Under the pieces are notes generated by a model. That model was not told where the DNA came from, did not search any database, and saw only the letters and a program-made list of their open reading frames with translations. Of a stretch of DNA of 64,000 nucleotides, positions 21,845 through 50,886 are shown piece after piece. This DNA comes from Spirochaetia bacterium (lineage in GTDB: Bacteria; Spirochaetota; Spirochaetia; CAKZLE01). The stretch lies in NCBI GenBank assembly GCA_963677595.1, contig OY782041.1, positions 544,001 through 608,000 on the forward strand, read 5' to 3'. Each line of letters begins with the position of its first letter. Position 1 is the stretch's first letter. A program made the translations under genes and the position numbers.

Positions 21845-22495
21845 ATGAAGCAAGAGAAACCGCTCTCAAAAACTCAACAAATCCGGAATCAGATACTACG
21901 GCTGGAGAAAGGAACCATCTTTTTATCGGATATTATTGATCTAAGCGATAGATCTGTGCTTCGAGTGATTCTATCACGCATCATTGCTGAAGGATTGATT
22001 GAGCGGCTTGGGCCCGGAATCTATCTATACCCGAGATATTCAGCATTACTGCAAAGAAATGTAACACCATCTCTAGAGGAAATCGCACAAGCCATTGCAC
22101 TGAAAGAACACTCAAGGATTGTACCTTCCGGTTCGTATTCAATGTACAAACTCGGATTTACAACACAGGTTCCCACGAAAGCTGTGTTCCTTACTGATGG
22201 CTCACCTAGAAAGATCACATTGGTCGATGGCAGAACAATCTTATTTAAATCAACGACGGCAAAGAACCTTGCTTTCAAAAATCCCCTTATGCAGTTATTG
22301 GTCTCAAGTCTCAAAATGATGAGATCAACCAATATCTCACCTGAGCAGTTAGTAAAGATTCGTTCTTTACTCACACATATACCTGATAAGGATTTTCAAT
22401 CTGATATCAAGCTGGCACCGGAAAGGATCCAAAAACTATTGATCCAACACAGGGAGGATACCCATGTTGCTCTGCAACCTATCGAAACAGGATAG
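21845..22495 (+). CDS. Type IV TA antitoxin, AbiEi/DUF6088-like
   Basis: LIERLGPGIY, LGFTTQVP...TDG. Confidence 0.85.
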   Translation: MKQEKPLSKTQQIRNQILRLEKGTIFLSDIIDLSDRSVLRVILSRIIAEGLIERLGPGIYLYPRYSALLQRNVTPSLEEIAQAIALKEHSRIVPSGSYSMYKLGFTTQVPTKAVFLTDGSPRKITLVDGRTILFKSTTAKNLAFKNPLMQLLVSSLKMMRSTNISPEQLVKIRSLLTHIPDKDFQSDIKLAPERIQKLLIQHREDTHVALQPIETG

Positions 22496-23492
22496 AATAG
22501 ATATTTTCAATGAAGCTGAAACACAAATGTTTATCGTTAGTAAAGCTATAGAGAAGGACTGGTGGGTATGCATTATATTGAAAGCCTTATTTTCAACTAA
22601 ATTTTATGATTATCTTGTTTTCAAGGGAGGTACTTCGCTTAGCAAAGGCTGGCACCTTATTGAGAGGTTCTCTGAGGATATCGATATTTCCATCCAAAGG
22701 GAATATCTTGGATTTGGGAACACTCTATCAAAAACACAAATCAGCAACAGATTACGTCGTGCTTCATGCTCTTTCGTAAGAACAGATCTGAAAAATGCTG
22801 TATCAGATGAGCTTTTAAAACTCGGAGTACCGGCAGCCCAATTCAACATCTCTGTGGAAAAAACAGCAGTGACCACTGTTGACCCGGAAAGAATCTTTGT
22901 CGAATATGAAAGTGTCTTTGATGATCCAGTGAATACCTATATTCACCCAAGCGTGATCATTGAAGCTGGGGCTAGAAGCATCTATGAACCCGCATCAAGA
23001 AGAACGATCAAGTCATTCATCTCGGAGTTATTCCCCAATCAGCCTTTCTCAGATACAGGAGTTGTTGTACATATTGCTCCTGCAGAAAGAACCTTTCTTG
23101 AAAAAGCATTTCTTCTTCATGAAGAATTCCATAAGCCAGAAGAATGCATTCGATCTGAACGAATGAGTCGCCATCTCTATGATCTGGAAAGGATGATGGA
23201 CACTCCTATATCGAAGGTTATAGGAAACACAACGATGTACCATGAAATAGTGGATCATCGAAAAAGGTATTTTGGCCTTAAAGGATTTAACTATGATACA
23301 TTGGACTATGGGTCCATAGATTTCGTCCCTCCTGAGACTGTTGCCAAGGTATGGAAACAGGACTATCAGGCTATGCGTGAATCAATCATTTATGGGCCTT
23401 CACTAACATATGAAAGCTTGATTGCACGTATTCAAGAATTGAATCGTATATTCCACCATCATGCTACAGATAGCACATCGAAATTTCCTTAA
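22464..23492 (+). CDS. Type IV TA toxin, AbiEii nucleotidyltransferase
   Basis: IEKDWW, FKGGTSLSK...RFSEDID, RHLYD. Confidence 0.92.
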   Translation: MLLCNLSKQDRIDIFNEAETQMFIVSKAIEKDWWVCIILKALFSTKFYDYLVFKGGTSLSKGWHLIERFSEDIDISIQREYLGFGNTLSKTQISNRLRRASCSFVRTDLKNAVSDELLKLGVPAAQFNISVEKTAVTTVDPERIFVEYESVFDDPVNTYIHPSVIIEAGARSIYEPASRRTIKSFISELFPNQPFSDTGVVVHIAPAERTFLEKAFLLHEEFHKPEECIRSERMSRHLYDLERMMDTPISKVIGNTTMYHEIVDHRKRYFGLKGFNYDTLDYGSIDFVPPETVAKVWKQDYQAMRESIIYGPSLTYESLIARIQELNRIFHHHATDSTSKFP

Positions 23493-25714: not shown

Positions 25715-26551
25715 TCAACCAGGTGTCTCGGCATCTGCTGCCATGGGAACAGGGTAATGGACCGTGACCTGCGGGAAGGGGATCTCGACCCCCTGTTCAC
25801 GGAATCGCTCATGGATATCGATCATGATGGAGTTCCGGGTCTCGATATACTGGGTCTTATCGAACCAGACACCGAACTTGACGGTGATGCCGGAGTCCCC
25901 GAAAGCGTTGACCATCCTGAAGGGTGCCGGCTCGTTGAGACAGAAAGGATTGTCCCTCCCGATAGCCTGCAGGATCGCGAGGACCTGTTCCAGGTCGGAG
26001 CGGTAGGCTACCGACAGGAGGATATCCATCCTCCTGATGGGAAACCGCGTGATATTGATGATATCGGTGGAGATCATCGTCTCATTGGGGATCCTGATGA
26101 GCAGGTTGTCGAAGGTCCTGAGCATGACCGAGAGCAGCTCGACCGAGCTGACCACCCCGGTCTTGTCCCCTACGGTGATGACATCCCCGATCTCGAAACT
26201 CTTCTCGGTGATGATGAAGAACCCGCTTATGATGTTACCCAGGCTCTTCTGGGAGGCGACACCGAGGGCGATACCGAGGATACCCGCAGCTCCCAGGAGG
26301 GCAGTGAGGCTGATCCCCAGTTCGGAGAGGACGATCACGATCAGGATGAGGAACCCGGCATAGTTGATGAGCTTCATCCCGATCATGCGTGTCTGCCGTT
26401 TCGCCCTACTGAAGACGGACTTGGTGAGCAGGAGCTTGATCAGCCGCAGCAGCAGGAACCCGACGAGGAGGATGATGACGACCTTGATGATCTGCTGGTA
26501 CTGGATCGAGGCGAAGAACTTCGTGATCGACTCTTTACTGAATATATCCAT
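25715..26551 (-). CDS. MscS-family mechanosensitive channel
   Basis: GAAGILGIALG, GD.I, IPN, IPFPQ. Confidence 0.92.
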   Translation of the reverse strand: MDIFSKESITKFFASIQYQQIIKVVIILLVGFLLLRLIKLLLTKSVFSRAKRQTRMIGMKLINYAGFLILIVIVLSELGISLTALLGAAGILGIALGVASQKSLGNIISGFFIITEKSFEIGDVITVGDKTGVVSSVELLSVMLRTFDNLLIRIPNETMISTDIINITRFPIRRMDILLSVAYRSDLEQVLAILQAIGRDNPFCLNEPAPFRMVNAFGDSGITVKFGVWFDKTQYIETRNSIMIDIHERFREQGVEIPFPQVTVHYPVPMAADAETPG

Positions 26552-26554
26552 AGC

Positions 26555-27298
26555 CTACCCTGAATAGAGATTCTTGATATAGTAGAAGCTCCGCTTGAGG
26601 ATACTCTGCGGTTCTGCCTTCTTCGAGAGCGAAACGAGTTTGAGCTCGTTCTCGGGGTCAGCGGGAGACTTCCGGTAGACGACTTGGCTGACCTGGTCCT
26701 GCCCCTTGAAGGTGATGTGGACGGGGCTGGCGATGAGCACCGTGGGGCTGTGGAAGATCGAGAGATTCGCCGTCCTGAAGACCAGTCGGTCGAACGCGAG
26801 ACTCGCGGATGACTTGTTGATGACCACGAGCGGGCAGTACACACTTATATGGGGTCTCTCGTAGTCGGAGATCCTCGGGAATACCCGGCTCTCCATGTGG
26901 TAGGCGAACTCCCCCTTCTCGGGACCGTCGACATAGCATCGGGAGATGTCCGAAGGACGGTACTCGAAGAGCAGTGTCTTCTTCTGCTCTGGACCGAAAA
27001 GGAACTTGATGGAGAACGGGATCTCGAGGAAGGCATTGAACTTCATGGCTGGGAGGATCGTGATGGTATCGACCGGCTTGATGAGGATCGGCAGGTCAGG
27101 CAGCCCCGGCTCCATATAGACCGGGGTATCAGAGCCGATGACGAAACGGTGAGCCTCCTCATTCCCGTTCACGGAGATCCTGATGAGGATCTCCCGGCTG
27201 TTCTTCACCACCTCGAGGGTATGGCCTTCTGCCAGTTCGAATGAGAACAGCGTATCAGTGAACTGTATCTCCCCCCAGGGGATCCTCTCTTCCTGCAC
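26555..27298 (-). CDS. DUF432-like hypothetical protein
   Basis: 247 aa, co-transcribed with mscS. Confidence 0.55.
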   Translation of the reverse strand: MQEERIPWGEIQFTDTLFSFELAEGHTLEVVKNSREILIRISVNGNEEAHRFVIGSDTPVYMEPGLPDLPILIKPVDTITILPAMKFNAFLEIPFSIKFLFGPEQKKTLLFEYRPSDISRCYVDGPEKGEFAYHMESRVFPRISDYERPHISVYCPLVVINKSSASLAFDRLVFRTANLSIFHSPTVLIASPVHITFKGQDQVSQVVYRKSPADPENELKLVSLSKKAEPQSILKRSFYYIKNLYSG

Positions 27299-27327: not shown

Positions 27328-27356
27328 AGTATACCTGTTGAGAAGATTTCTTTCCA
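27328..27356 (-). promoter_or_regulatory. sigma70 promoter for the DUF432-mscS operon
   Basis: TGGAAA-17 nt-TATACT, about 30 bp upstream of the start codon. Confidence 0.65.
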
Positions 27357-28035
27357 TGGAAAAATATATTATACTGTCTGAAACCAGGGATCGGAGGTGA
27401 CCGTATGTCCAGATTCTTCAAGAAGCGGGATGCAGTACTCGGCAAGCGCCCGGGAGAACTCGTCTATATAGGCAAGCACGGTACGAATGTACTCCGTGCC
27501 GATACGATCAGCTATACCCATGCAGGGCTTGCGGAACAGGAGGGGCTCCCCGCTGACAGGGTCCCGAGGTCGGCACCGGACGGGAACCTGTGGGTCAATG
27601 TCGAGGGTATCTCCGATGTCCCAGCCATGGAACAGCTGGAATCCCTCTGGGACCTCGATCCTCTGGTCGCGGCCAGTATCATGCATACCGGGACGAGGCC
27701 GATGATCATGAGGACCGGGGACGGGATCTTCTTCCTCATGAAGATGCTCTGCTACGACGAGGACCACGGGAGGATCACCTCCGAGCAGCTGAGCATGCTC
27801 ATCACCGATTCCAGGCTGATCACCTTCCAGGAAGCTGCCGGGGATGTCTTCGATGCTGTCAGGGCAAGGCTCGGGGATGTGAACTCACGCCTCAGGCACA
27901 GCGGCGTTGACTACCTCGCCTTCTCCCTCATGGATTCCATCGTGGACAACTATATGCTCATCATCCAGAACATAGCGGAAGCGGTAGAGAACATCGAGGA
28001 GAAGATGCTCGAGAGACCCGACGAGACGGTCATCC
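27329..28035. repeat. 707-bp direct repeat, left copy (target duplication)
   Basis: Matches 30194-30900; both copies abut the IS termini. Confidence 0.95.
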
Positions 28036-28094
28036 CCGGTCTTTTTACCAGAATTAGCGAGTATGCCCATTTTCCCCATTTCAGCCCTGTCTAG
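27405..28094 (+). pseudogene. corA: Truncated duplicate of the corA 5' part, fused to the IS end
   Basis: First ~211 aa identical to the ORF at 30270; then reads into the IS. Confidence 0.92.
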
Positions 28095-30193
28095 GGCTAT
28101 TTTTTTGGCCATTACGAATTTTTAAAGAAATATTACTGTGCTACGTTGTACCACGTTGCGCCACGCTACCAAATGTGTTACACTATATTACACAGGAGGT
28201 AGCCCATGCATGTCTCCGTTATCCCAGAACACGCAACCGGCAAGCATCTGATGCAGTACGTCACAAGTACCCGCAAAGGGAAAAAGACTAAGAAAACCAC
28301 GGAGGAAACCATCGGCTATGTCGAGGACTTCCTTGATCGCTATGATGACCCGGTCGCTCACTTCAAAGCAGAGGCCAAGCGGATCACAGCAGAGCGGAAA
28401 GCTCAGCAGAAGACTATAGGGGTTGAACTCCAACCCGATGCACGGCTTCCCTTCGATCCGGATACCCACAGCTTCTCCCGTGAATTCAACATCGGCCATG
28501 CGGCGATCAGTCAGGTATTCCACACCCTTGACCTCCACACCTTCTTTGATCGGCGCCGGATAAAGCTTGATGTGCAGTTCAATCTGACCGCTGTCATGAA
28601 ACTCCTCATCTATGAGCGTATTCTGGCTCCTGCCTCCAAACGCGCTACCTGGAAGTCTCGAAGGCGATACTTTGACAAGATGGACTTCAATCTCAATGCG
28701 GTATACCAGACCCTTTCTCACATCAACCCCTGGACTGATGACCTGATCGCTCACCTGCATGCGAAGATGGTAGAACTCTATGACCGGGATACCACCCTCA
28801 TGTACTATGATGTGACCAACTACTACTTTGAGATCGACGAAGCTGATGATTTTCGCATAAGGGGAATCTGCAAGGAGCACCGTCCGTTACCGATCGTGCA
28901 GATGGGGCTGTTCATGGATGAACAGGGCTTCCCGGTGTCCTTTGACTTGTTTCCCGGTAATGTCAATGACTGCCTGACCTTTGAAGCAATGAGCGAGCAT
29001 GCCAGAACCCTGTTTGAGGCCAAGCATCTGATCTTCGTAGCTGACAAGGCCATGCTCACGGGGAACAACATCGCAGATGTGATCCTCCATCATAACGGGT
29101 ATGTCTTCAGCAAGTCGGTACGGGGCGGGACGAAAAAACTCAAGCAGGCGGTCAGGGATCCTCATGGCTATCTGCGGTTTGCGGAAGACGGGAAGCTCAT
29201 TGCGCCTGGTGACAACGAGACGGCAGTCTGGTCCAAGTACAAGATCCTTGATGAGCAGAAACCCACCTATGTGACGAACACGGACGGCAAGCGGGTAGCC
29301 TCCTCAGGTGTTGGCCACTACCAGATCATCTATTGGTCACGTGCGTATGACAAACGAGCCAAAGCGCAGCGGCTGGAAGCGGTAGAGCATGCGCTTGATG
29401 CATCATCACGGCAGAGTAAGGAAGTCATCGACAGTAACTACGGGAAGAACAAGTATCTGATGACCATGGTCTATGATCCCCAGACCAAGAAGTATACCGA
29501 CAACTATAAGGCCAAGACGGAGTTTGATGCTGCCAAGCTTGAAGAAGATGAGTCGTTTGACGGATTCTATGTCATTGAGACCAATGTGACGGGGCTCAGA
29601 CCGTTTGTCGATGCCAGGGGACATGAGACCGGTGAACTCGAGCCTGCGTTTGCCACACCTCACCGCTGGCTCAAAGAAGAGGGCATGCTGCAGCTCAACC
29701 GGCCGATTGGCCCTCTGGATATTATTACGATGTACCATGGGCTGTGGAAGATCGAACAGTCCTTCAGGGTCACCAAGAGTGAGTTGGATGCCCGTCCGGT
29801 CTTTCTGTCTTTAGAGGATCGAATTCATTCCCACTTCCTTACCTGCTTCATCGCTCTGCTCATCCTGCGTATCCTGGAGCATGAACTCGATCATGAATTC
29901 TCAACAGAGCAGATAGGGACTTCCCTGAATCAGGCGAATGTCGCAGAGATCACTGGGGCAACGTACATGACTTTGCAGTACGATGAAGTCCAAAAGGCTT
30001 TGAAGGAAAAGATGGGAATCCCGTTCGGCATGAATGTATACTCGAGAGCTGCGATCAAGAAGATGATCGCTGAGACGAAAAAAAACCGGAAACGGTAGGG
30101 ACGTACTACAAGTTTTTTTAGCCAGGTGCTGACCTATTGTGTTGTATTGCAATAGGTTAGCGCCGTCATTTCCTAAATTGGTAAAAACACAGG
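28036..30193 (+). mobile_element. IS1634-family insertion sequence, copy 1 (2,158 bp)
   Basis: Imperfect IR CCGGTCTTTTTACCA / CCTGTGTTTTTACCA (13/15); near-identical copy at 45133-47290. Confidence 0.95.
28206..30098 (+). CDS. IS1634-family DDE transposase
   Basis: YYDVTNYYFE, G..KEHR, FVADKA, YHGLWKIEQSFRVTKS. Confidence 0.95.
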   Translation: MHVSVIPEHATGKHLMQYVTSTRKGKKTKKTTEETIGYVEDFLDRYDDPVAHFKAEAKRITAERKAQQKTIGVELQPDARLPFDPDTHSFSREFNIGHAAISQVFHTLDLHTFFDRRRIKLDVQFNLTAVMKLLIYERILAPASKRATWKSRRRYFDKMDFNLNAVYQTLSHINPWTDDLIAHLHAKMVELYDRDTTLMYYDVTNYYFEIDEADDFRIRGICKEHRPLPIVQMGLFMDEQGFPVSFDLFPGNVNDCLTFEAMSEHARTLFEAKHLIFVADKAMLTGNNIADVILHHNGYVFSKSVRGGTKKLKQAVRDPHGYLRFAEDGKLIAPGDNETAVWSKYKILDEQKPTYVTNTDGKRVASSGVGHYQIIYWSRAYDKRAKAQRLEAVEHALDASSRQSKEVIDSNYGKNKYLMTMVYDPQTKKYTDNYKAKTEFDAAKLEEDESFDGFYVIETNVTGLRPFVDARGHETGELEPAFATPHRWLKEEGMLQLNRPIGPLDIITMYHGLWKIEQSFRVTKSELDARPVFLSLEDRIHSHFLTCFIALLILRILEHELDHEFSTEQIGTSLNQANVAEITGATYMTLQYDEVQKALKEKMGIPFGMNVYSRAAIKKMIAETKKNRKR

Positions 30194-30900
30194 GTATACC
30201 TGTTGAGAAGATTTCTTTCCATGGAAAAATATATTATACTGTCTGAAACCAGGGATCGGAGGTGACCGTATGTCCAGATTCTTCAAGAAGCGGGATGCAG
30301 TACTCGGCAAGCGCCCGGGAGAACTCGTCTATATAGGCAAGCACGGTACGAATGTACTCCGTGCCGATACGATCAGCTATACCCATGCAGGGCTTGCGGA
30401 ACAGGAGGGGCTCCCCGCTGACAGGGTCCCGAGGTCGGCACCGGACGGGAACCTGTGGGTCAATGTCGAGGGTATCTCCGATGTCCCAGCCATGGAACAG
30501 CTGGAATCCCTCTGGGACCTCGATCCTCTGGTCGCGGCCAGTATCATGCATACCGGGACGAGGCCGATGATCATGAGGACCGGGGACGGGATCTTCTTCC
30601 TCATGAAGATGCTCTGCTACGACGAGGACCACGGGAGGATCACCTCCGAGCAGCTGAGCATGCTCATCACCGATTCCAGGCTGATCACCTTCCAGGAAGC
30701 TGCCGGGGATGTCTTCGATGCTGTCAGGGCAAGGCTCGGGGATGTGAACTCACGCCTCAGGCACAGCGGCGTTGACTACCTCGCCTTCTCCCTCATGGAT
30801 TCCATCGTGGACAACTATATGCTCATCATCCAGAACATAGCGGAAGCGGTAGAGAACATCGAGGAGAAGATGCTCGAGAGACCCGACGAGACGGTCATCC
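30194..30900. repeat. 707-bp direct repeat, right copy
   Basis: Matches 27329-28035. Confidence 0.95.
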
Positions 30901-31328
30901 CCGATATCGTCTTCCACAAGAAGGAGCTGCTCTACCTGAGGAAGACGATCCTCCCCTTCCGGGACGCCCTGCGCCAGTTCCTCAGCGACCTGCCGCCGCT
31001 CTTTGCCGATTCCGAGCGGTTCCTCCAGGACCTCCTCTCCAACCTGCTCCATATCGTGGACACGATCGAGGTCTACCGGGAGATCACCTCAGGGCTGCAG
31101 AACACCTATGACTCCTTCATGAACAACCGGCTCAATGACATCATGCGGTTCCTCACCATCTTCTCAGTCATCTTCCTGCCGCTGACGCTGATCACCGGGA
31201 TCTACGGGACGAACTTCGACTACATCCCGGAGCTGCACTTCGCCTATGGGTATCTGTTCCTCTGGGGGACGCTGGTCATCTCCACCGTGGTCATGATCAT
31301 CATCTTCAAGAAGAAGAAATGGCTCTGA
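30270..31328 (+). CDS. corA: Magnesium/cobalt transporter CorA
   Basis: Two C-terminal TM helices with YGTNF (variant of GMN). Confidence 0.9.
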   Translation: MSRFFKKRDAVLGKRPGELVYIGKHGTNVLRADTISYTHAGLAEQEGLPADRVPRSAPDGNLWVNVEGISDVPAMEQLESLWDLDPLVAASIMHTGTRPMIMRTGDGIFFLMKMLCYDEDHGRITSEQLSMLITDSRLITFQEAAGDVFDAVRARLGDVNSRLRHSGVDYLAFSLMDSIVDNYMLIIQNIAEAVENIEEKMLERPDETVIPDIVFHKKELLYLRKTILPFRDALRQFLSDLPPLFADSERFLQDLLSNLLHIVDTIEVYREITSGLQNTYDSFMNNRLNDIMRFLTIFSVIFLPLTLITGIYGTNFDYIPELHFAYGYLFLWGTLVISTVVMIIIFKKKKWL

Positions 31329-33057: not shown

Positions 33058-33675
33058 TCACTCCTTGGGGCAGCTGTCGCCGGGTTCGGCGGTAGCGGTA
33101 TCGAAGTCACAGCAGCCCTCCTCCAGCTGTAACGCCGGGGCGGCCGTGCAGTAGACGGTATCATCGCAGGGTGCACTCTCCGGGCTGACCGTCTGTACCG
33201 GGTTCGGGAAGGACATCCCGTCGATCAGCTTCCCGGTGATCAGCTTCAGGAAGTACTTCTGGGAGAAATCATAATCATACTTCTCCTCTGCAATATCCAG
33301 CAGCCAGGGAAAGGTCCTGAGCATGTTGAAGAGGGTATACGCCGCAGCACTGGGTCTTGAGTTCCCCGTCTTCCACTTCGATATCGTCCGCTGGGGCAAG
33401 TCGAGGACCCGCTCCATGGAAGCGAAGCTGTATCTGTTCTCAAGGAAGTACTCGAGGATGTTCTCCATGGCTTCCTTCTTCAGATCAGCCTCTGCAGCCT
33501 GCAGCAGGGCATCCGGGTCTCCCTCGGCATACACCTCATATTCACAGCTCCCGCACGTACGTGTGCTGTAGTCGACCGTCCTGGAACTCCCCGAATAGGG
33601 TTCGGTGACCACAAGGGAATCATTCCTGATGACTACCGAGGCCTCCCCGCACAGGGGGCAAACGTTTCGGCTCAT
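33058..33675 (-). CDS. MqsA-like antitoxin (zinc finger + HTH) with C-terminal extension
   Basis: CPLCG...CGSC; LDLPQRTISKWKTG. Confidence 0.75.
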   Translation of the reverse strand: MSRNVCPLCGEASVVIRNDSLVVTEPYSGSSRTVDYSTRTCGSCEYEVYAEGDPDALLQAAEADLKKEAMENILEYFLENRYSFASMERVLDLPQRTISKWKTGNSRPSAAAYTLFNMLRTFPWLLDIAEEKYDYDFSQKYFLKLITGKLIDGMSFPNPVQTVSPESAPCDDTVYCTAAPALQLEEGCCDFDTATAEPGDSCPKE

Positions 33676-44823: not shown

Positions 44824-44912
44824 AGGACTCGGGTTGACGCCTTAAAAAAATATCGGCTGAGATTTCTCCCAGCCGGTAATGATTTTTCATCGTATGAAAG
44901 TTCATAAGGAAG

Positions 44913-44984
44913 AGCGGCTGAAGGGAGTCGAACCCTCGTCACGAGCTTGGGAAGCTCGGGTAATAGCCGTTATACGACAGCCGC
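44913..44984 (-). tRNA. tRNA-Gly(CCC)
   Basis: GCGGCTG/CAGCCGC acceptor, CGAGC-TTCCCAA-GCTCG anticodon arm, TTCGA T-loop; CCA not encoded. Confidence 0.95.
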
Positions 44985-45003
44985 AGGTAACCGAACACAA
45001 GTC

Positions 45004-45031
45004 ATTATACCGAACTTGAAGAATTAATCAA
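45004..45031 (-). promoter_or_regulatory. sigma70 promoter of tRNA-Gly
   Basis: TTGATT-16 nt-TATAAT, 20 bp upstream of the tRNA. Confidence 0.7.
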
Positions 45032-45132
45032 CTATTTATGGTCAATTCATCAGAATATAGTAAGCCACCCGGGCATCCTGGTTGAGCTATGCCGGAATAT
45101 CACATCCTACAGAGTATCAGCATTTTCAGACG
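45005..45132. repeat. 128-bp direct repeat, left copy
   Basis: Matches 47291-47418 with one mismatch (45102 A vs 47388 C). Confidence 0.95.
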
Positions 45133-47290
45133 CCGGTCTTTTTACCAGAATTAGCGAGTATGCCCATTTTCCCCATTTCAGCCCTGTCTAGGGCTATTTT
45201 TTTGGCCATTACGAATTTTTAAAGAAATATTACTGTGCTACGTTGTACCACGTTGCGCCACGCTACCAAATGTGTTACACTATATTACACAGGAGGTAGC
45301 CCATGTATGTCTCCGTTATCCCAGAACACGCAACCGGCAAGCATCTGATGCAGTACGTCACAAGTACCCGCAAAGGGAAAAAGACTAAGAAAACCACGGA
45401 GGAAACCATCGGCTATGTCGAGGACTTCCTTGATCGCTATGATGACCCGGTCGCTCACTTCAAAGCAGAGGCCAAGCGGATCACAGCAGAGCGGAAAGCT
45501 CAGCAGAAGACTATAGGGGTTGAACTCCAACCCGATGCACGGCTTCCCTTCGATCCGGATACCCACAGCTTCTCCCGTGAATTCAACATCGGCCATGCGG
45601 CGATCAGTCAGGTATTCCACACCCTTGACCTCCACACCTTCTTTGATCGGCGCCGGATAAAGCTTGATGTGCAGTTCAATCTGACCGCTGTCATGAAACT
45701 CCTCATCTATGAGCGTATTCTGGCTCCTGCCTCCAAACGCGCTACCTGGAAGTCTCGAAGGCGATACTTTGACAAGATGGACTTCAATCTCAATGCGGTA
45801 TACCAGACCCTTTCTCACATCAACCCCTGGACTGATGACCTGATCGCTCACCTGCATGCGAAGATGGTAGAACTCTATGACCGGGATACCACCCTCATGT
45901 ACTATGATGTGACCAACTACTACTTTGAGATCGACGAAGCTGATGATTTTCGCATAAGGGGAATCTGCAAGGAGCACCGTCCGTTACCGATCGTGCAGAT
46001 GGGGCTGTTCATGGATGAACAGGGCTTCCCGGTGTCCTTTGACTTGTTTCCCGGTAATGTCAATGACTGCCTGACCTTTGAAGCAATGAGCGAGCATGCC
46101 AGAACCCTGTTTGAGGCCAAGCATCTGATCTTCGTAGCTGACAAGGCCATGCTCACGGGGAACAACATCGCAGATGTGATCCTCCATCATAACGGGTATG
46201 TCTTCAGCAAGTCGGTACGGGGCGGGACGAAAAAACTCAAGCAGGCGGTCAGGGATCCTCATGGCTATCTGCGGTTTGCGGAAGACGGGAAGCTCATTGC
46301 GCCTGGTGACAACGAGACGGCAGTCTGGTCCAAGTACAAGATCCTTGATGAGCAGAAACCCACCTATGTGACGAACACGGACGGCAAGCGGGTAGCCTCC
46401 TCAGGTGTTGGCCACTACCAGATCATCTATTGGTCACGTGCGTATGACAAACGAGCCAAAGCGCAGCGGCTGGAAGCGGTAGAGCATGCGCTTGATGCAT
46501 CATCACGGCAGAGTAAGGAAGTCATCGACAGTAACTACGGGAAGAACAAGTATCTGATGACCATGGTCTATGATCCCCAGACCAAGAAGTATACCGACAA
46601 CTATAAGGCCAAGACGGAGTTTGATGCTGCCAAGCTTGAAGAAGATGAGTCGTTTGACGGATTCTATGTCATTGAGACCAATGTGACGGGGCTCAGACCG
46701 TTTGTCGATGCCAGGGGACATGAGACCGGTGAACTCGAGCCTGCGTTTGCCACACCTCACCGCTGGCTCAAAGAAGAGGGCATGCTGCAGCTCAACCGGC
46801 CGATTGGCCCTCTGGATATTATTACGATGTACCATGGGCTGTGGAAGATCGAACAGTCCTTCAGGGTCACCAAGAGTGAGTTGGATGCCCGTCCGGTCTT
46901 TCTGTCTTTAGAGGATCGAATTCATTCCCACTTCCTTACCTGCTTCATCGCTCTGCTCATCCTGCGTATCCTGGAGCATGAACTCGATCATGAATTCTCA
47001 ACAGAGCAGATAGGGACTTCCCTGAATCAGGCGAATGTCGCAGAGATCACTGGGGCAACGTACATGACTTTGCAGTACGATGAAGTCCAAAAGGCTTTGA
47101 AGGAAAAGATGGGAATCCCGTTCGGCATGAATGTATACTCGAGAGCTGCGATCAAGAAGATGATCGCTGAGACGAAAAAAAACCGGAAACGGTAGGGACG
47201 TACTACAAGTTTTTTTAGCCAGGTGCTGACCTATTGTGTTGTATTGCAATAGGTTAGCGCCGTCATTTCCTAAATTGGTAAAAACACAGG
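45133..47290 (+). mobile_element. IS1634-family insertion sequence, copy 2 (2,158 bp)
   Basis: Same termini and transposase as 28036-30193 (H2Y difference). Confidence 0.95.
45303..47195 (+). CDS. IS1634-family DDE transposase
   Basis: As 28206-30098. Confidence 0.95.
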   Translation: MYVSVIPEHATGKHLMQYVTSTRKGKKTKKTTEETIGYVEDFLDRYDDPVAHFKAEAKRITAERKAQQKTIGVELQPDARLPFDPDTHSFSREFNIGHAAISQVFHTLDLHTFFDRRRIKLDVQFNLTAVMKLLIYERILAPASKRATWKSRRRYFDKMDFNLNAVYQTLSHINPWTDDLIAHLHAKMVELYDRDTTLMYYDVTNYYFEIDEADDFRIRGICKEHRPLPIVQMGLFMDEQGFPVSFDLFPGNVNDCLTFEAMSEHARTLFEAKHLIFVADKAMLTGNNIADVILHHNGYVFSKSVRGGTKKLKQAVRDPHGYLRFAEDGKLIAPGDNETAVWSKYKILDEQKPTYVTNTDGKRVASSGVGHYQIIYWSRAYDKRAKAQRLEAVEHALDASSRQSKEVIDSNYGKNKYLMTMVYDPQTKKYTDNYKAKTEFDAAKLEEDESFDGFYVIETNVTGLRPFVDARGHETGELEPAFATPHRWLKEEGMLQLNRPIGPLDIITMYHGLWKIEQSFRVTKSELDARPVFLSLEDRIHSHFLTCFIALLILRILEHELDHEFSTEQIGTSLNQANVAEITGATYMTLQYDEVQKALKEKMGIPFGMNVYSRAAIKKMIAETKKNRKR

Positions 47291-47418
47291 TTATACCGAA
47301 CTTGAAGAATTAATCAACTATTTATGGTCAATTCATCAGAATATAGTAAGCCACCCGGGCATCCTGGTTGAGCTATGCCGGAATATCCCATCCTACAGAG
47401 TATCAGCATTTTCAGACG
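47291..47418. repeat. 128-bp direct repeat, right copy
   Basis: Matches 45005-45132. Confidence 0.95.
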
Positions 47419-47881
47419 GGACTGAAGTTCGAGGCATCTCATTATCAAGTATCCTGTATAGGTACTCTTTCAGAAGCATCTTGACCGTCGTTCCTCTCTG
47501 TATTGCTTCTTGTTTGATCCTGTCCTGCAATTCGTAAGGAACCGTGAATGAGTATTCATCCATTGGAGAGATGAACAGGGATCCATTGACTGCTGTACTC
47601 ATCTTCCTCAGGATGTCGTAACTCGGCTTGCCTTTCATCCTGAGTACCCGTGAGATCGCGCTTTGCTTTGTCCCCATGGTTCTTGCGATATCATCTTGGG
47701 TCAAGTTCTGGATATCTTTCAGGAATTCAAAATCGAGTATGAACTGTGATAGAGCACCCCATGTCTCTTCGAATTCAAGAAACTTTTTATCCCCTTCAAC
47801 CAATTCATCAACATATGAATCGATATCATCTATGGGCTTCAATTCCAATGAATCAAGTTCTGGATTCTCTTCTCTTCTCAT
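47393..47881 (-). CDS. XRE HTH antitoxin (HigA-like)
   Basis: LTQDDIARTMGTKQSAISRV. Confidence 0.8.
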   Translation of the reverse strand: MRREENPELDSLELKPIDDIDSYVDELVEGDKKFLEFEETWGALSQFILDFEFLKDIQNLTQDDIARTMGTKQSAISRVLRMKGKPSYDILRKMSTAVNGSLFISPMDEYSFTVPYELQDRIKQEAIQRGTTVKMLLKEYLYRILDNEMPRTSVPSENADTL

Positions 47882-48263
47882 ATTCCCTTACAGCCTCCCT
47901 CTTGATTCTTGCAGCTCGTTCGAATTCAGGCGGGATCTTATCATTCCGCTTAAATTCCGCATGTAGGATCAGTATGGCATTCCTCCTGGTTGGATGCGTA
48001 ATAAAATAGATTCTTGTTACTCCATCAGAACAATGGTCTGACGGGATCCTGATCTCTGAGATACCGCCTCCTAATGACTTAAGCTTTTTAGTCATATAGT
48101 GAACTCCCAGACTGTCCAGATCAGTTTGCTGCAGAACTTTCAAGAAAGCTTTCAACTGAAGCATGATAGATTCCCGTCTTCTGCGTCGCAACGTGTCAAA
48201 CAGTCTTTTCAACACACTTGTACCGACACAGTTCAGTTCTGTCGGGTATTGGAATATTTCCAT
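47853..48263 (-). CDS. RelE/HigB-like toxin
   Basis: KKL...GISEIR...RIYF...ILHAEFK; toxin-first order; upstream IR AAATATAACA-TATT-TGTTATATTT (48275-48298). Confidence 0.75.
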   Translation of the reverse strand: MEIFQYPTELNCVGTSVLKRLFDTLRRRRRESIMLQLKAFLKVLQQTDLDSLGVHYMTKKLKSLGGGISEIRIPSDHCSDGVTRIYFITHPTRRNAILILHAEFKRNDKIPPEFERAARIKREAVREYEKRRESRT

Positions 48264-48570
48264 CCAGACTCCTAAAATATAACATATTTGTTATATTTGT
48301 CAATGTAAAATCGATCCACTGCATGTGTACTGAAGCGATACATACAGGCAGGACATGTATCAATACTACGATAGACTGACAAACTAACCTATACCCTTCT
48401 TATTGTACCTGAACCGGTAAATTACCATCTTCTCAGCAGGTCATCTTTCTAGCCCTCGTTCAATCCTTTAGCAGCAGGTAGTACCGGCAGGCCAACCTTT
48501 ATCATGTTGAGGCAGGAAGTCATTACCGTGGTGTGTATCAATAGTGAAAAGAGGGTAAAGTATTCTTATG

Positions 48571-48642
48571 ATCAAATGATGGGAGTCGGACCCTCGTCAC
48601 GAGCTTGGGAAGCTCGGGTACCAACCGTTATACAGGAGCCGC
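48571..48642 (-). pseudogene. Degenerate tRNA-Gly(CCC) copy
   Basis: Anticodon arm identical to the 44913-44984 gene; D-arm and T-loop mutated, 3' acceptor strand lost. Confidence 0.8.
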
Positions 48643-48687
48643 AATACAGGAACTTAGATCTTTTCACTGAACATGCAGCATGCAGGG

Positions 48688-50886
48688 TCAATTCATCAGA
48701 ATATAGTAAGCCACCCGGGCATCCTGGTTGATCCCGACCCCGATGATCACGTCCCCGAGGAAGGAGCTTATGCCTATACCCGCACCACTCCCGAACTTCA
48801 GGTCTATCCCATCGGTGCTTGCCGGGAACTCATCCCAGCCGTTCCCGAGGCGGAACTGGGTGATACCGTAGATATCGGCTCCAATGACCTCCGAGATGGT
48901 CTTGAACCGGTGCTGGTAGGCAACCCCGATCATGAGCGAATCATTATAGACATTCCGGCTGGTGAGGTATCCTGGGATACCGTCCCAGCCACCGATATCG
49001 AACCCCATCTGCCTGTTTGTGAACCGACCCCTGTAGGAGCCGAAATGAAGGTCATAAGACAGGGTCCCGAACTCGGTTATCGGTATATGGTGATCATGTT
49101 CCAGGAAGATCCGGTGGTACCAGCTGTCCGAGGGTATCATGGAGAACTCGATGAAAGAGGAATGGATGATCCCGCTGTGGATGAACGGATGGTGTTCCGT
49201 ATCCTTCCAGATGAAGGAGGGGCCGAAGACCAGGTCAATGTCCGTCTGCACATCCACGGCCTCAGGATCCTCCCCGTAGAGCCAGGAGATATATTCAGAG
49301 AAGTGCGCACCTATCTCAGTGAACCTGCCGAACAGCAGCCCCGCTTCCTGCCTGGCAGAGAGCAGGATGGACCTCTTTATCGTCTCATCAGCAGCCGTCA
49401 ATTCCTCGTTATAGAGGTTCACCGTCGGGTGGATATACCCGAAGGAACCTATCGGGGTGAAGAGTTCAAGGTCCAGCTTGAACTGCTCCCCGAGCTTCAT
49501 GTCCATCATCGCGTAGGCATGGGTACCAAAGAGCTCGGTGAACACCAGGGAGGCCGTAAGGGCCGGGTCAAGGTACCAGGGAACTGCTAGGTTCGCCGAA
49601 TACTCGGCATCAAAGGCGAAACCGAGCCCGATCGAATTCCTCCCGCGGTCTGAGAGGACCGGTGAGATCTCCAGGTCGAACCCATCGTCCGCAGGGACCA
49701 GGGCATATCGGATGGAATCGTACCGGCCGGTCGCTACGAGCCTGTTGATCGACCTGTCAAGCTCCTCGAGTGTCGCATGGTCCAGGGTCGTCTCCCTGAT
49801 CCCCTCGAAGAGATCCAGCGGGAACAGTTCATCATCGGTCGCCAGGGAGACTGCAAGGAATTCCGGGTTCGGGAGGCTCGCATAGACCCCTTCCCGGTCA
49901 GGGGCAGGGATGGGGATATCACGGGTCTTGGAGACCTGGTCCCGCAATGAGAGGAGCTTTGCTTCCAGTTCCCTCGCAGCAGCCTCTCCTCGCTTGATGA
50001 ACTCTTCATACTCGGTGAACATCGCCGCATTGAGACCTGAGAGGTCCGGTTGGATCACGAGATCAGCCAGCTTCGCATGCTCCTCCTCGGTGCTGTCGAG
50101 GATGATCAGCAGCGTCTGGGTCAGGATGTCGATGCTCGAATTCAACTTCTCAGGAGACGATACCTGCTCAGAGTCGACATCGACCGCGATGATGATATCG
50201 GCTCCCATGGATCGTGCGACATCGACGGGGAGGTTGTTCCTCACTCCCCCGTCGAGGTAGTAGTTCCCGTCGATCTCATAGGGGGCGAATACGGTAGGTA
50301 TCGACATAGTCGCCCGCATCGCATCAGCGATCCTGCCGGAGTCGAAGACCTTCTCCTCTCCGGTCAGGAGGTTGACGCCGACACAGCGGAACCTTCGGGA
50401 GAACTGATCGAAATCATCGATATACGAGACCTTGGAGGTGACCCGTGAGAGCATGGAGAGGATCTTCTGGTCTGAGATGACCCCAAGGGAGGTCCCGAAC
50501 CCGTCCTTGTCGAATGAGAAGGAGAGGATATTCTGCTCCCCGTCGATGACCGGACCGAAATAGTAGTCATAGGGGCTGGAAGGTGGAAGGAAGAGATCTA
50601 CCCAGTCCGTGGAAGCGACTGTCTCCTGGATCTCTTCAGGGGTGTACCCGATCGCGTACAAGCCGCCTGCAAGTCCTCCCATGCTCGTCCCCACCACGAT
50701 ATCGACGGGGATACCAAGTTCTTCGATGACCTTGAGCACCCCGATATGGGCGAAACCGAGCGCAGCTCCCCCTGACAGGACCAGGGCGACCTGGGGATCG
50801 CGTCCTGCTGCCTCATCCATCGACTCTGCCGGCACTGCCGAACAGATGAGGAGGATGAAGAACACAGCCGCAAGCGATCGTTTCAT
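48688..50886 (-). CDS. Patatin-like phospholipase with C-terminal beta-barrel (PlpD-like)
   Basis: Signal peptide, SGGAALG, GTSMG, DGG. Confidence 0.88.
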   Translation of the reverse strand: MKRSLAAVFFILLICSAVPAESMDEAAGRDPQVALVLSGGAALGFAHIGVLKVIEELGIPVDIVVGTSMGGLAGGLYAIGYTPEEIQETVASTDWVDLFLPPSSPYDYYFGPVIDGEQNILSFSFDKDGFGTSLGVISDQKILSMLSRVTSKVSYIDDFDQFSRRFRCVGVNLLTGEEKVFDSGRIADAMRATMSIPTVFAPYEIDGNYYLDGGVRNNLPVDVARSMGADIIIAVDVDSEQVSSPEKLNSSIDILTQTLLIILDSTEEEHAKLADLVIQPDLSGLNAAMFTEYEEFIKRGEAAARELEAKLLSLRDQVSKTRDIPIPAPDREGVYASLPNPEFLAVSLATDDELFPLDLFEGIRETTLDHATLEELDRSINRLVATGRYDSIRYALVPADDGFDLEISPVLSDRGRNSIGLGFAFDAEYSANLAVPWYLDPALTASLVFTELFGTHAYAMMDMKLGEQFKLDLELFTPIGSFGYIHPTVNLYNEELTAADETIKRSILLSARQEAGLLFGRFTEIGAHFSEYISWLYGEDPEAVDVQTDIDLVFGPSFIWKDTEHHPFIHSGIIHSSFIEFSMIPSDSWYHRIFLEHDHHIPITEFGTLSYDLHFGSYRGRFTNRQMGFDIGGWDGIPGYLTSRNVYNDSLMIGVAYQHRFKTISEVIGADIYGITQFRLGNGWDEFPASTDGIDLKFGSGAGIGISSFLGDVIIGVGINQDARVAYYILMN

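Follow-up and report, generated by a model that had tools for sequence, protein, structure and literature searches.

We describe an insertion sequence (IS) of the IS1634 family beside the magnesium transporter gene corA in a Spirochaetia bacterium (assembly GCA_963677595.1, contig OY782041.1), within the 64,000-nucleotide stretch from contig position 544,001 to 608,000 that we call the window. The element lies between two identical 707-bp direct repeats. The account that we favour, at a probability of roughly 70%, is that these repeats are a target duplication in which the right end of the IS joined at the predicted -10 box of a leftward promoter and the left end at a point 707 bases upstream of it. 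The element is a genuine representative of the known long-repeat kind of IS1634, its repeat length alone is a modest extension, and the corA locus is a long but ordinary example; what appears to be new is the oriented joining at predicted promoter -10/start regions, which we measured with controls. The asymmetry of the junctions, with the promoter end fixed and the other end placed loosely upstream at T/C (T ending the repeat, C following it), makes the old puzzle of long duplications testable. The features that carry the argument are these, in window coordinates:

27329..28035, no strand: left copy of the 707-bp repeat read as a target duplication; 707/707 identity to 30194-30900
28036..30193, plus strand: IS1634-family IS of 2,158 bp, with five near-identical copies in the genome; blastn, and NF033559 at 299.1 bits against a cut-off of 100
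28036..28050, plus strand: left inverted repeat (IRL), joined where the duplication ends upstream, at a loosely chosen site; 13/15 match to the right inverted repeat (IRR), boundary the same in 5/5 copies
30179..30193, minus strand: IRR, joined within the predicted -10 box of the leftward promoter; 13/15 match to IRL, consensus scan
30194..30900, no strand: right copy of the same 707-bp repeat; identity to the left copy
27328..27356, minus strand: predicted sigma70 promoter TGGAAA-17-TATACT of the leftward genes; best-scoring site in the consensus scan

Both copies of the repeat directly adjoin the termini of the IS, which are inverted repeats of 15 bp with 13 positions in agreement. The raw exact match is 710 bp long, since the repeat is followed in the target by three bases (CCG) that are also the first three of the IS, and by blastn the repeat occurs at these two places only in the whole single-contig genome of 4.33 Mb. 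An earlier note, made from the letters of the window, had given IS coordinates and abutting 707-bp repeats that prove exact, and had linked the element to IS1634, which the NF033559 match, the DDE motif and the termini uphold. It had also placed a truncated corA on the left and a complete one on the right, in agreement with the open reading frames (ORFs) of 229 and 352 aa that we find there, and had described an intact leftward promoter. The consensus scan does predict such a promoter, whole in the left copy only: the repeat boundary precedes the last T of the -10 box, so that TATACT is complete on the left and the right copy reads TATACC into the IS. The anatomy in that note thus stands; what it had missed is that the repeat starts inside a predicted -10 box, and that this placement appears to be a rule across the clade.

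The evidence for this rule comes from a set of 59 loci with a repeat, from which we removed four duplicates and eight loci not bounded by inverted repeats (among the latter, L062, L066 and L153 were afterwards reinterpreted as circular contigs), leaving 47 right-end junctions, with both ends available at 42 loci. Beside the right end, T occupies position +2 in 42/47 sites and A position +3 in 36/47, and three further junctions, represented by loose ends in short-read runs X1 and X3, also continue with a TAT step. Promoter scores were matches to the sigma70 consensus with weights set by hand, and were compared with controls of 1,500 positions each from this genome (random intergenic, intergenic NTAY and intergenic NTATA). 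At 40 of the 47 sites the higher score fell on the strand that reads out of the repeat (controls 49–50%; binomial p 5e-7); the mean on this strand was 8.47, compared with 7.10 on the opposite strand, 7.12 in shuffles and 6.65–6.79 at 24 left-end junctions. A measure independent of the TATA step at the cut, the presence of a -35-like word within the repeat on the predicted strand, gave 29/47 (12–14/47 in three mirror positions; controls 25–29%; p 2e-6). Among 35 well-scoring sites, 16 are cut within the -10 box, 17 are cut 0–12 nt past it and two are cut in the spacer.

In 37 of 42 cases the first gene beyond the repeat faces the cut with its 5' end (controls 58–64%; p about 5e-4), and the genes on the other side split 21/19. 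Two of the right-end sites precede tRNA genes, by 21 and 27 nt, and two apparent exceptions in this genome were resolved, the cuts falling 21 nt before a tRNA-Gly gene and 13 nt before a start codon. A plus-strand -10 box driving corA was also considered as the target at the present locus and rejected, as both score and gene orientation favour the opposite strand. Taken as a property of this clade, oriented promoter targeting is in our judgement highly probable, and the start of the repeat in the -10 box is likely to be the reason that genes are spared. The right end cuts between genes. A gene interrupted by the left end is therefore still complete in the right copy (corA at this locus, PIG-L deacetylase and phosphofructokinase genes at sister copies), and the downstream gene retains its promoter in the left copy. 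At 15/35 sites, the corA locus among them, the predicted promoter has a lower score in its right-hand copy.

The left end behaves differently, with only a weak T/C preference. T ends the repeat in 27/42 junctions, C follows it in 26/42 (background 23%) and the two occur together in 19/42; the C favoured after the repeat is also the first base of the IS. Left-end joins fall inside an ORF in 28 of 42 loci. Repeat lengths are without the 10–11-bp helical periodicity that a fixed protein-bridged loop might produce (Rayleigh p 0.18–0.54, n = 44).

Long repeats accompany this IS wherever it is found in the genome. Its five near-identical copies have their own repeats of 707, 577, 564, about 213 (98% identical) and 128 bp (one mismatch), and both copies of a second, 31%-identical IS1634 element have long repeats of 94 and 298 bp, so that all seven IS1634 copies of this genome (G000) carry long repeats, of 94–707 bp. 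With four further near-complete genomes of the same class (G380, G338, G268 and G392), which contribute nine, four, five and two copies, the total over the five near-complete spirochaete genomes is 27 full copies, every one flanked by long repeats; at two of the five G268 copies the flanks are swapped between copies (311 and 177 bp). The exchanged flanks at these two loci, L257 and L258, mark a chromosomal rearrangement by recombination between IS copies. The earlier note's reading of the repeats as a target duplication is borne out by this regularity. Its remark that 707 bp is exceptionally long holds in one respect and fails in another. Across 44 measured repeats the lengths run from 35 to 707 bp with a median of 128, and four exceed the published maximum of 514, the accessible passages of PMC2266710 giving 8–514 bp for the long variable repeats of IS1634 and IS1549. 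Within the clade the length is not exceptional: uniqueness of 707 bp was rejected, as another IS1634 element in a same-genus genome has a 705-bp repeat and repeats of 577 and 564 bp stand in this genome.

IS callers that look for short duplications overlook repeats hundreds of bases long, and in short-read assemblies such repeats collapse to loops. Four circular short-read contigs each consist of one IS and one spacer (65, 263, 501 and 163 bp) that is longer than the contig-end overlap, as expected of collapsed repeat-flanked copies or excised circles. Locus L119 (3848-8453) holds IS-207 bp-IS-207 bp in tandem and lacks a left repeat to match, an arrangement for which re-insertion at the same site, amplification through the repeat and mis-assembly are alternatives.

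That the 707-bp repeats are a target duplication made by this IS we regard as close to certain. In short-read run X3, a unitig covers exactly 27329-28038 with no differences, at a depth of 75.9 compared with 36–54 in the listed flanking contigs; such breaks at both repeat limits are what is expected when the reads contain both junctions. A depth ratio below 2, together with single-nucleotide polymorphisms in the flanks, suggests a mixture of strains. The same run also shows the junctions of two sister copies. It represents a close population, possibly the source sample, and so provides another type of data whose independence as a sample is uncertain. Mis-assembly around a multi-copy IS might nevertheless have created the repeat: the genome is probably metagenome-derived, with a contamination of 6.28%, some sister repeats carry mismatches or indels, no single contig of the read runs covers the locus from end to end and none of the read sets was shown to bridge all 3.6 kb. 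Such an artefact would be difficult to square with a unitig that starts and stops exactly at the repeat limits, with boundaries that are base-precise at the inverted repeats, and with the same pattern in many independent assemblies, including the four circular contigs with their 65–501 bp spacers, and we give it practically no weight.

How such a duplication could form is a separate question. By standard DDE chemistry, a duplication would need the right-end 3'-OH to be joined, where the repeat starts, to the top strand (the template for the leftward promoter) and the left end to be joined, where the repeat stops, to the opposite strand. The right-end 3'-OH would thus attack the promoter template strand, usually at about -12 to +5, where DNA melts at initiation, and the left end would then attack the opposite strand at a variable distance upstream. 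A single Tn5-like pair of active sites cannot make a stagger of hundreds of bases, and helical phasing is absent from the lengths; two uncoupled transfers are therefore favoured. More speculatively, the two strand transfers could be uncoupled in time, with the target 3'-OH freed by the first nick priming strand-displacement synthesis upstream, the second end joining at the moving single/double-strand junction, and gap filling copying the intervening stretch; pairing of 1–3 bases with the IS end at the capture step might then explain the C bias. This uncoupled strand-displacement route is put forward tentatively, at a little under even odds. We would say the same of its extension to the clade, namely that IS1634 elements of this group (Spirochaetota, Bacillota) might home on the melted -10/start of housekeeping promoters and join the second end, after strand-displacement synthesis, tens to hundreds of bases upstream. 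If true, this strategy would let the element insert without damage while copying promoters and gene ends, and would answer how long variable duplications form; it would also explain spread without gene breakage while seeding duplicated promoters and truncated gene copies.

A number of observations weigh against the favoured account. No empty allele or transposition intermediate was found among the genomes and runs searched: runs X1–X4 (of which X4 yielded nothing) contained no contig joining across the site, and a DNA search of 40 other genomes returned distant corA or IS matches only. Among 56 full-flank loci, some of them duplicates, 16 lack a repeat of at least 25 bp; two of these are the swapped pair and 14 are unexplained, mostly in fragmented assemblies. 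The promoters are predicted, being consensus matches only, and the p values given above are overstated because related elements are not independent. Under a stricter test, which called for a Shine-Dalgarno-led ORF or a tRNA within 300 nt, the predicted side succeeded in 25/41 and the mirror side in 15/41; counted by element (n = 20 distinct), the predicted side had 11 and the mirror side two. The other strand scores better at 7/47 sites, both Flexilinea sites are without a -10 box, and one G000 copy (785438) has a good promoter score and neither a gene within 250 nt nor an Rfam match. In Mycoplasmopsis, 5/8 resolved copies have repeats of 43–255 bp with no clear -10 box, so that long repeats do not require promoter targeting. 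Finally, the template strand is normally buried in the RNA polymerase open complex, which is a poor fit with direct attack.

Three other explanations address the junctions rather than the assembly. The transposase might simply prefer AT-rich, TATA-like steps, with no promoter targeting, and selection might keep the insertions that spare genes. Family targets are described as AT-rich tracts of 5–6 bp in the accessible passages of PMC2266710, surviving insertions alone are visible, and even among the intergenic TATA controls the gene on the left faces the site in 64% and the promoter score is raised, at 7.66. At those same control sites, however, the two strands are alike (minus over plus in 49.5%) and -35-like words occur in 29%, compared with 40/47 and 29/47 at the junctions, and selection gives no reason for preferring the 5' end of the left gene over its 3' end at the cut; we judge this explanation improbable. 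Still less probable is that short-duplication insertions occurred at two nearby sites on sister chromosomes and were followed by homologous recombination between the IS copies. Recombination between copies does occur, as at the two G268 copies with swapped flanks, the tandem array in L119 could be counted in its favour, and other family members make 5–6-bp duplications (5 bp at a Geobacillus plasmid copy, 6 bp for ISGka5 and ISPfe2). Yet the 27 copies in near-complete genomes include no short-duplication copy, and the two junctions carry different sequence signatures where this route predicts the same at both.

The replication fork offers a different source for the duplication, and one that could be compatible with promoter targeting setting the first end: the IS ends would enter two daughter duplexes or a lagging-strand gap at different positions, and replication would duplicate the stretch between them. 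Lengths up to about 0.7 kb are within the scale of Okazaki fragments, and in G000 six of seven copies have the transposase head-on to the fork as inferred from GC skew, although that proportion is also expected if the targeted promoters are mostly co-directional. The accessible text of PMC4549789 reports that an Acidiphilium IS1634 transposase binds the beta clamp, but a QxxLF-like motif was present in the last 45 residues of 0/111 relatives by a pattern that is insensitive and also missed the Acidiphilium plasmid protein, and the part of PMC3971601 that was accessible gives no family-wide orientation bias for IS1634 (P 0.227 and 0.282). The fork model further predicts deletions as often as duplications, whereas 27/27 copies carry duplications, though selection could remove deletions. 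On balance we consider it unlikely, and prefer two uncoupled transfers at a predicted promoter.

The assignment of the element to IS1634 rests on its transposase and its termini:

28206..30098, plus strand: DDE transposase of 630 aa; Pfam DDE_Tnp_1, and NF033559 (IS1634 family) at 299.1 bits against a cut-off of 100

Across 112 aligned sequences, the predicted catalytic residues D202 and D280 are invariant and E517 is conserved in at least 90%. The DDE triad with a long spacer before E and the RNase H/IS4-like fold, by which the family is recognized, are both present. According to the accessible passages of PMC2266710, the family has a variant YREK motif from which the arginine is usually absent, and a terminal inverted repeat consensus C-----YT. 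The motif Y-x2-L-x3-E-x6-K, here Y510-L513-E517-K524 with all four residues at least 90% conserved in the same 112 sequences, matches the arginine-less variant, and both IS ends start with CC and have TT at positions 7–8, which fits the consensus. No solved structure was matched by the transposase at the sequence level. An alignment-based structure model (mean predicted local distance difference test, pLDDT, 91.3; a single-sequence version reached only 31.6) has Tn5 as its closest solved fold (Foldseek E 1.6e-9; 1mm8, Z 18.9, root-mean-square deviation 4.4, 331 residues aligned), ahead of the IS256-family ISCth4 (Z 9.9), with residues 1–95 outside the top structure matches. The named close relatives of the transposase are from spirochaetes. 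At window position 28209 (IS position 174) the present copy has one base unlike its four sister copies, which changes transposase residue 2 from Y to H; contigs of runs X1–X3 carry the sister allele at this position.

A quick tree of 32 proteins places the 28 long-repeat proteins of spirochaetes, Bacillota and Flexilinea in one clade (Shimodaira–Hasegawa-like approximate likelihood-ratio test, SH-aLRT, 97), with the Geobacillus, Rhodococcus, Acidiphilium and long-branched Mycoplasmopsis proteins outside it. A Carnobacterium plasmid copy has a 175-bp repeat with TTGACA-17-TATATT up to the cut. The Mycoplasma lineage may use another target signal. At two Mycoplasmopsis loci, L270 and L282, the long-repeat junctions adjoin terminator-like hairpins and not -10 boxes.

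With IS1634 of Mycoplasma mycoides subsp. mycoides SC and IS1549 of Mycobacterium smegmatis, the element shares the family hidden Markov model (HMM), the DDE motif, the termini and long variable duplications. It is longer than they are (2,158 bp, against a family range of 1.5–2.0 kb), as are its repeats, and oriented right-end joining at the -10/start is not described in the passages accessible for those elements, which do not include the original papers. Their long variable duplications were reportedly first described in 1998–1999, by Plikaytis (1998) and Vilei (1999). As of 2008 there was no mechanistic model for them, going by the accessible passages of PMC2266710, and the part of PMC3053259 that was accessible has nothing further on target choice. 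We found no report of -10 targeting by IS1634-family elements in the open literature, a scope outside which subscription journals, ISfinder and supplements fall.

The majority type of the family, with AT-rich duplications of 5–6 bp and a length of 1.5–2.0 kb, is not matched by this element at 707 bp and 2,158 bp. The short-duplication members ISGka5 (Geobacillus), ISPfe2 (Paracoccus) and Acidiphilium IS1634 have the family and a DDE transposase in common with it, and a Geobacillus plasmid copy has similar inverted repeats. That plasmid copy has a 5-bp duplication, and ISGka5 and ISPfe2 have 6-bp duplications in the accessible text of PMC8024623 and PMC3281130, unlike the 707 bp here; Acidiphilium IS1634 differs in its reported C-terminal clamp motif, which the insensitive pattern did not reveal in this clade. 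Tn5, or IS50, has the closest solved fold to this transposase, but in Tn5 a single step joins the two ends, with the stagger fixed at 9 bp; the duplication given for IS50 in the accessible passages of PMC2266710 is 8–9 bp. The nearest functional parallel is with TnGBS, ISLre2 and ISKra4, for which the accessible part of PMC3942029 likewise describes oriented insertion set by housekeeping (sigma-A) promoters with genes spared. Those elements insert 15–17 bp upstream of the -35 (same source), whereas 33/35 well-scoring sites of this clade are in or at most 12 nt past the predicted -10 box. Their transposase is Mutator-like, whereas that of the present element is DDE_Tnp_1/IS1634 with a Tn5-like fold, and this clade duplicates 35–707 bp upstream. 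Promoter targeting here would, if true, be a second and chemically unrelated route beside TnGBS/ISLre2.

Around the insertion, the window holds the two forms of corA, the leftward genes and some further signals:

27405..28094, plus strand: truncated corA, 229 aa (211 CorA residues and 18 encoded by the IS), without the C-terminal membrane part and the GxN motif; ORF comparison
30270..31328, plus strand: intact corA of 352 aa, with no other full corA found in the genome; TIGR00383 at 244.9 bits against a cut-off of 200.75
27338..27365, plus strand: candidate corA promoter TTGAGA-16-AAAAAT, fully within the repeat and hence copied at 30203-30230; consensus scan only
28083..28098, plus strand: terminator-like hairpin at the left end of the IS; consensus scan
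26555..27298, minus strand: gene of 247 aa, the first downstream of the predicted targeted promoter, starting 30 nt from the cut; no Pfam/NCBIfam match

In silico removal of the IS and one repeat yields the same intact corA, and it is plausible that the insertion is near-silent. Since the corA promoter candidate is retained in the left copy, that copy could give rise to a 229-aa soluble fragment without membrane helices, while the hairpin would restrict transcription running on from the truncated corA into the transposase gene. An MgtE gene in the genome could mask a corA defect, and reversion by recombination across 707 identical bases would be expected. On the leftward side, the 247-aa gene is followed on the same strand by an mscS-like gene (25715-26551) and then by a 4Fe-4S gene. 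The usual CorA motif is GMN; the intact CorA has GTN, as does a relative in L004, and those in L003, L006 and L007 have GMN.

Elsewhere in the window, 21845-23492 holds a DUF6088 plus AbiEii toxin–antitoxin pair, and 33058-33675 has an MqsA-like antitoxin match that is weak (E 8e-4) and does not reach the cut-off. There was no Rfam match near the corA locus. In the genome at large, a 251-bp gap downstream of the promoter-like site targeted at L014 (G000 784622-784874) contains no ORF, tRNA or Rfam match and is possibly a small RNA. The window also includes another insertion of the same element:

45005..47418, plus strand: second copy of the IS (45133-47290) with 128-bp repeats (one mismatch); cut 21 nt upstream of the tRNA-Gly 5' end

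The tRNA-Gly(CCC) gene lies at 44912-44984 on the minus strand and has a partial copy of 67 nt, 88% identical, at 48577-48643. A 46-nt repeat recurs near it at 45040, 47326 and 48686 (window 44912-48731); together with the partial tRNA copy, it suggests an older integration or duplication at the tRNA.

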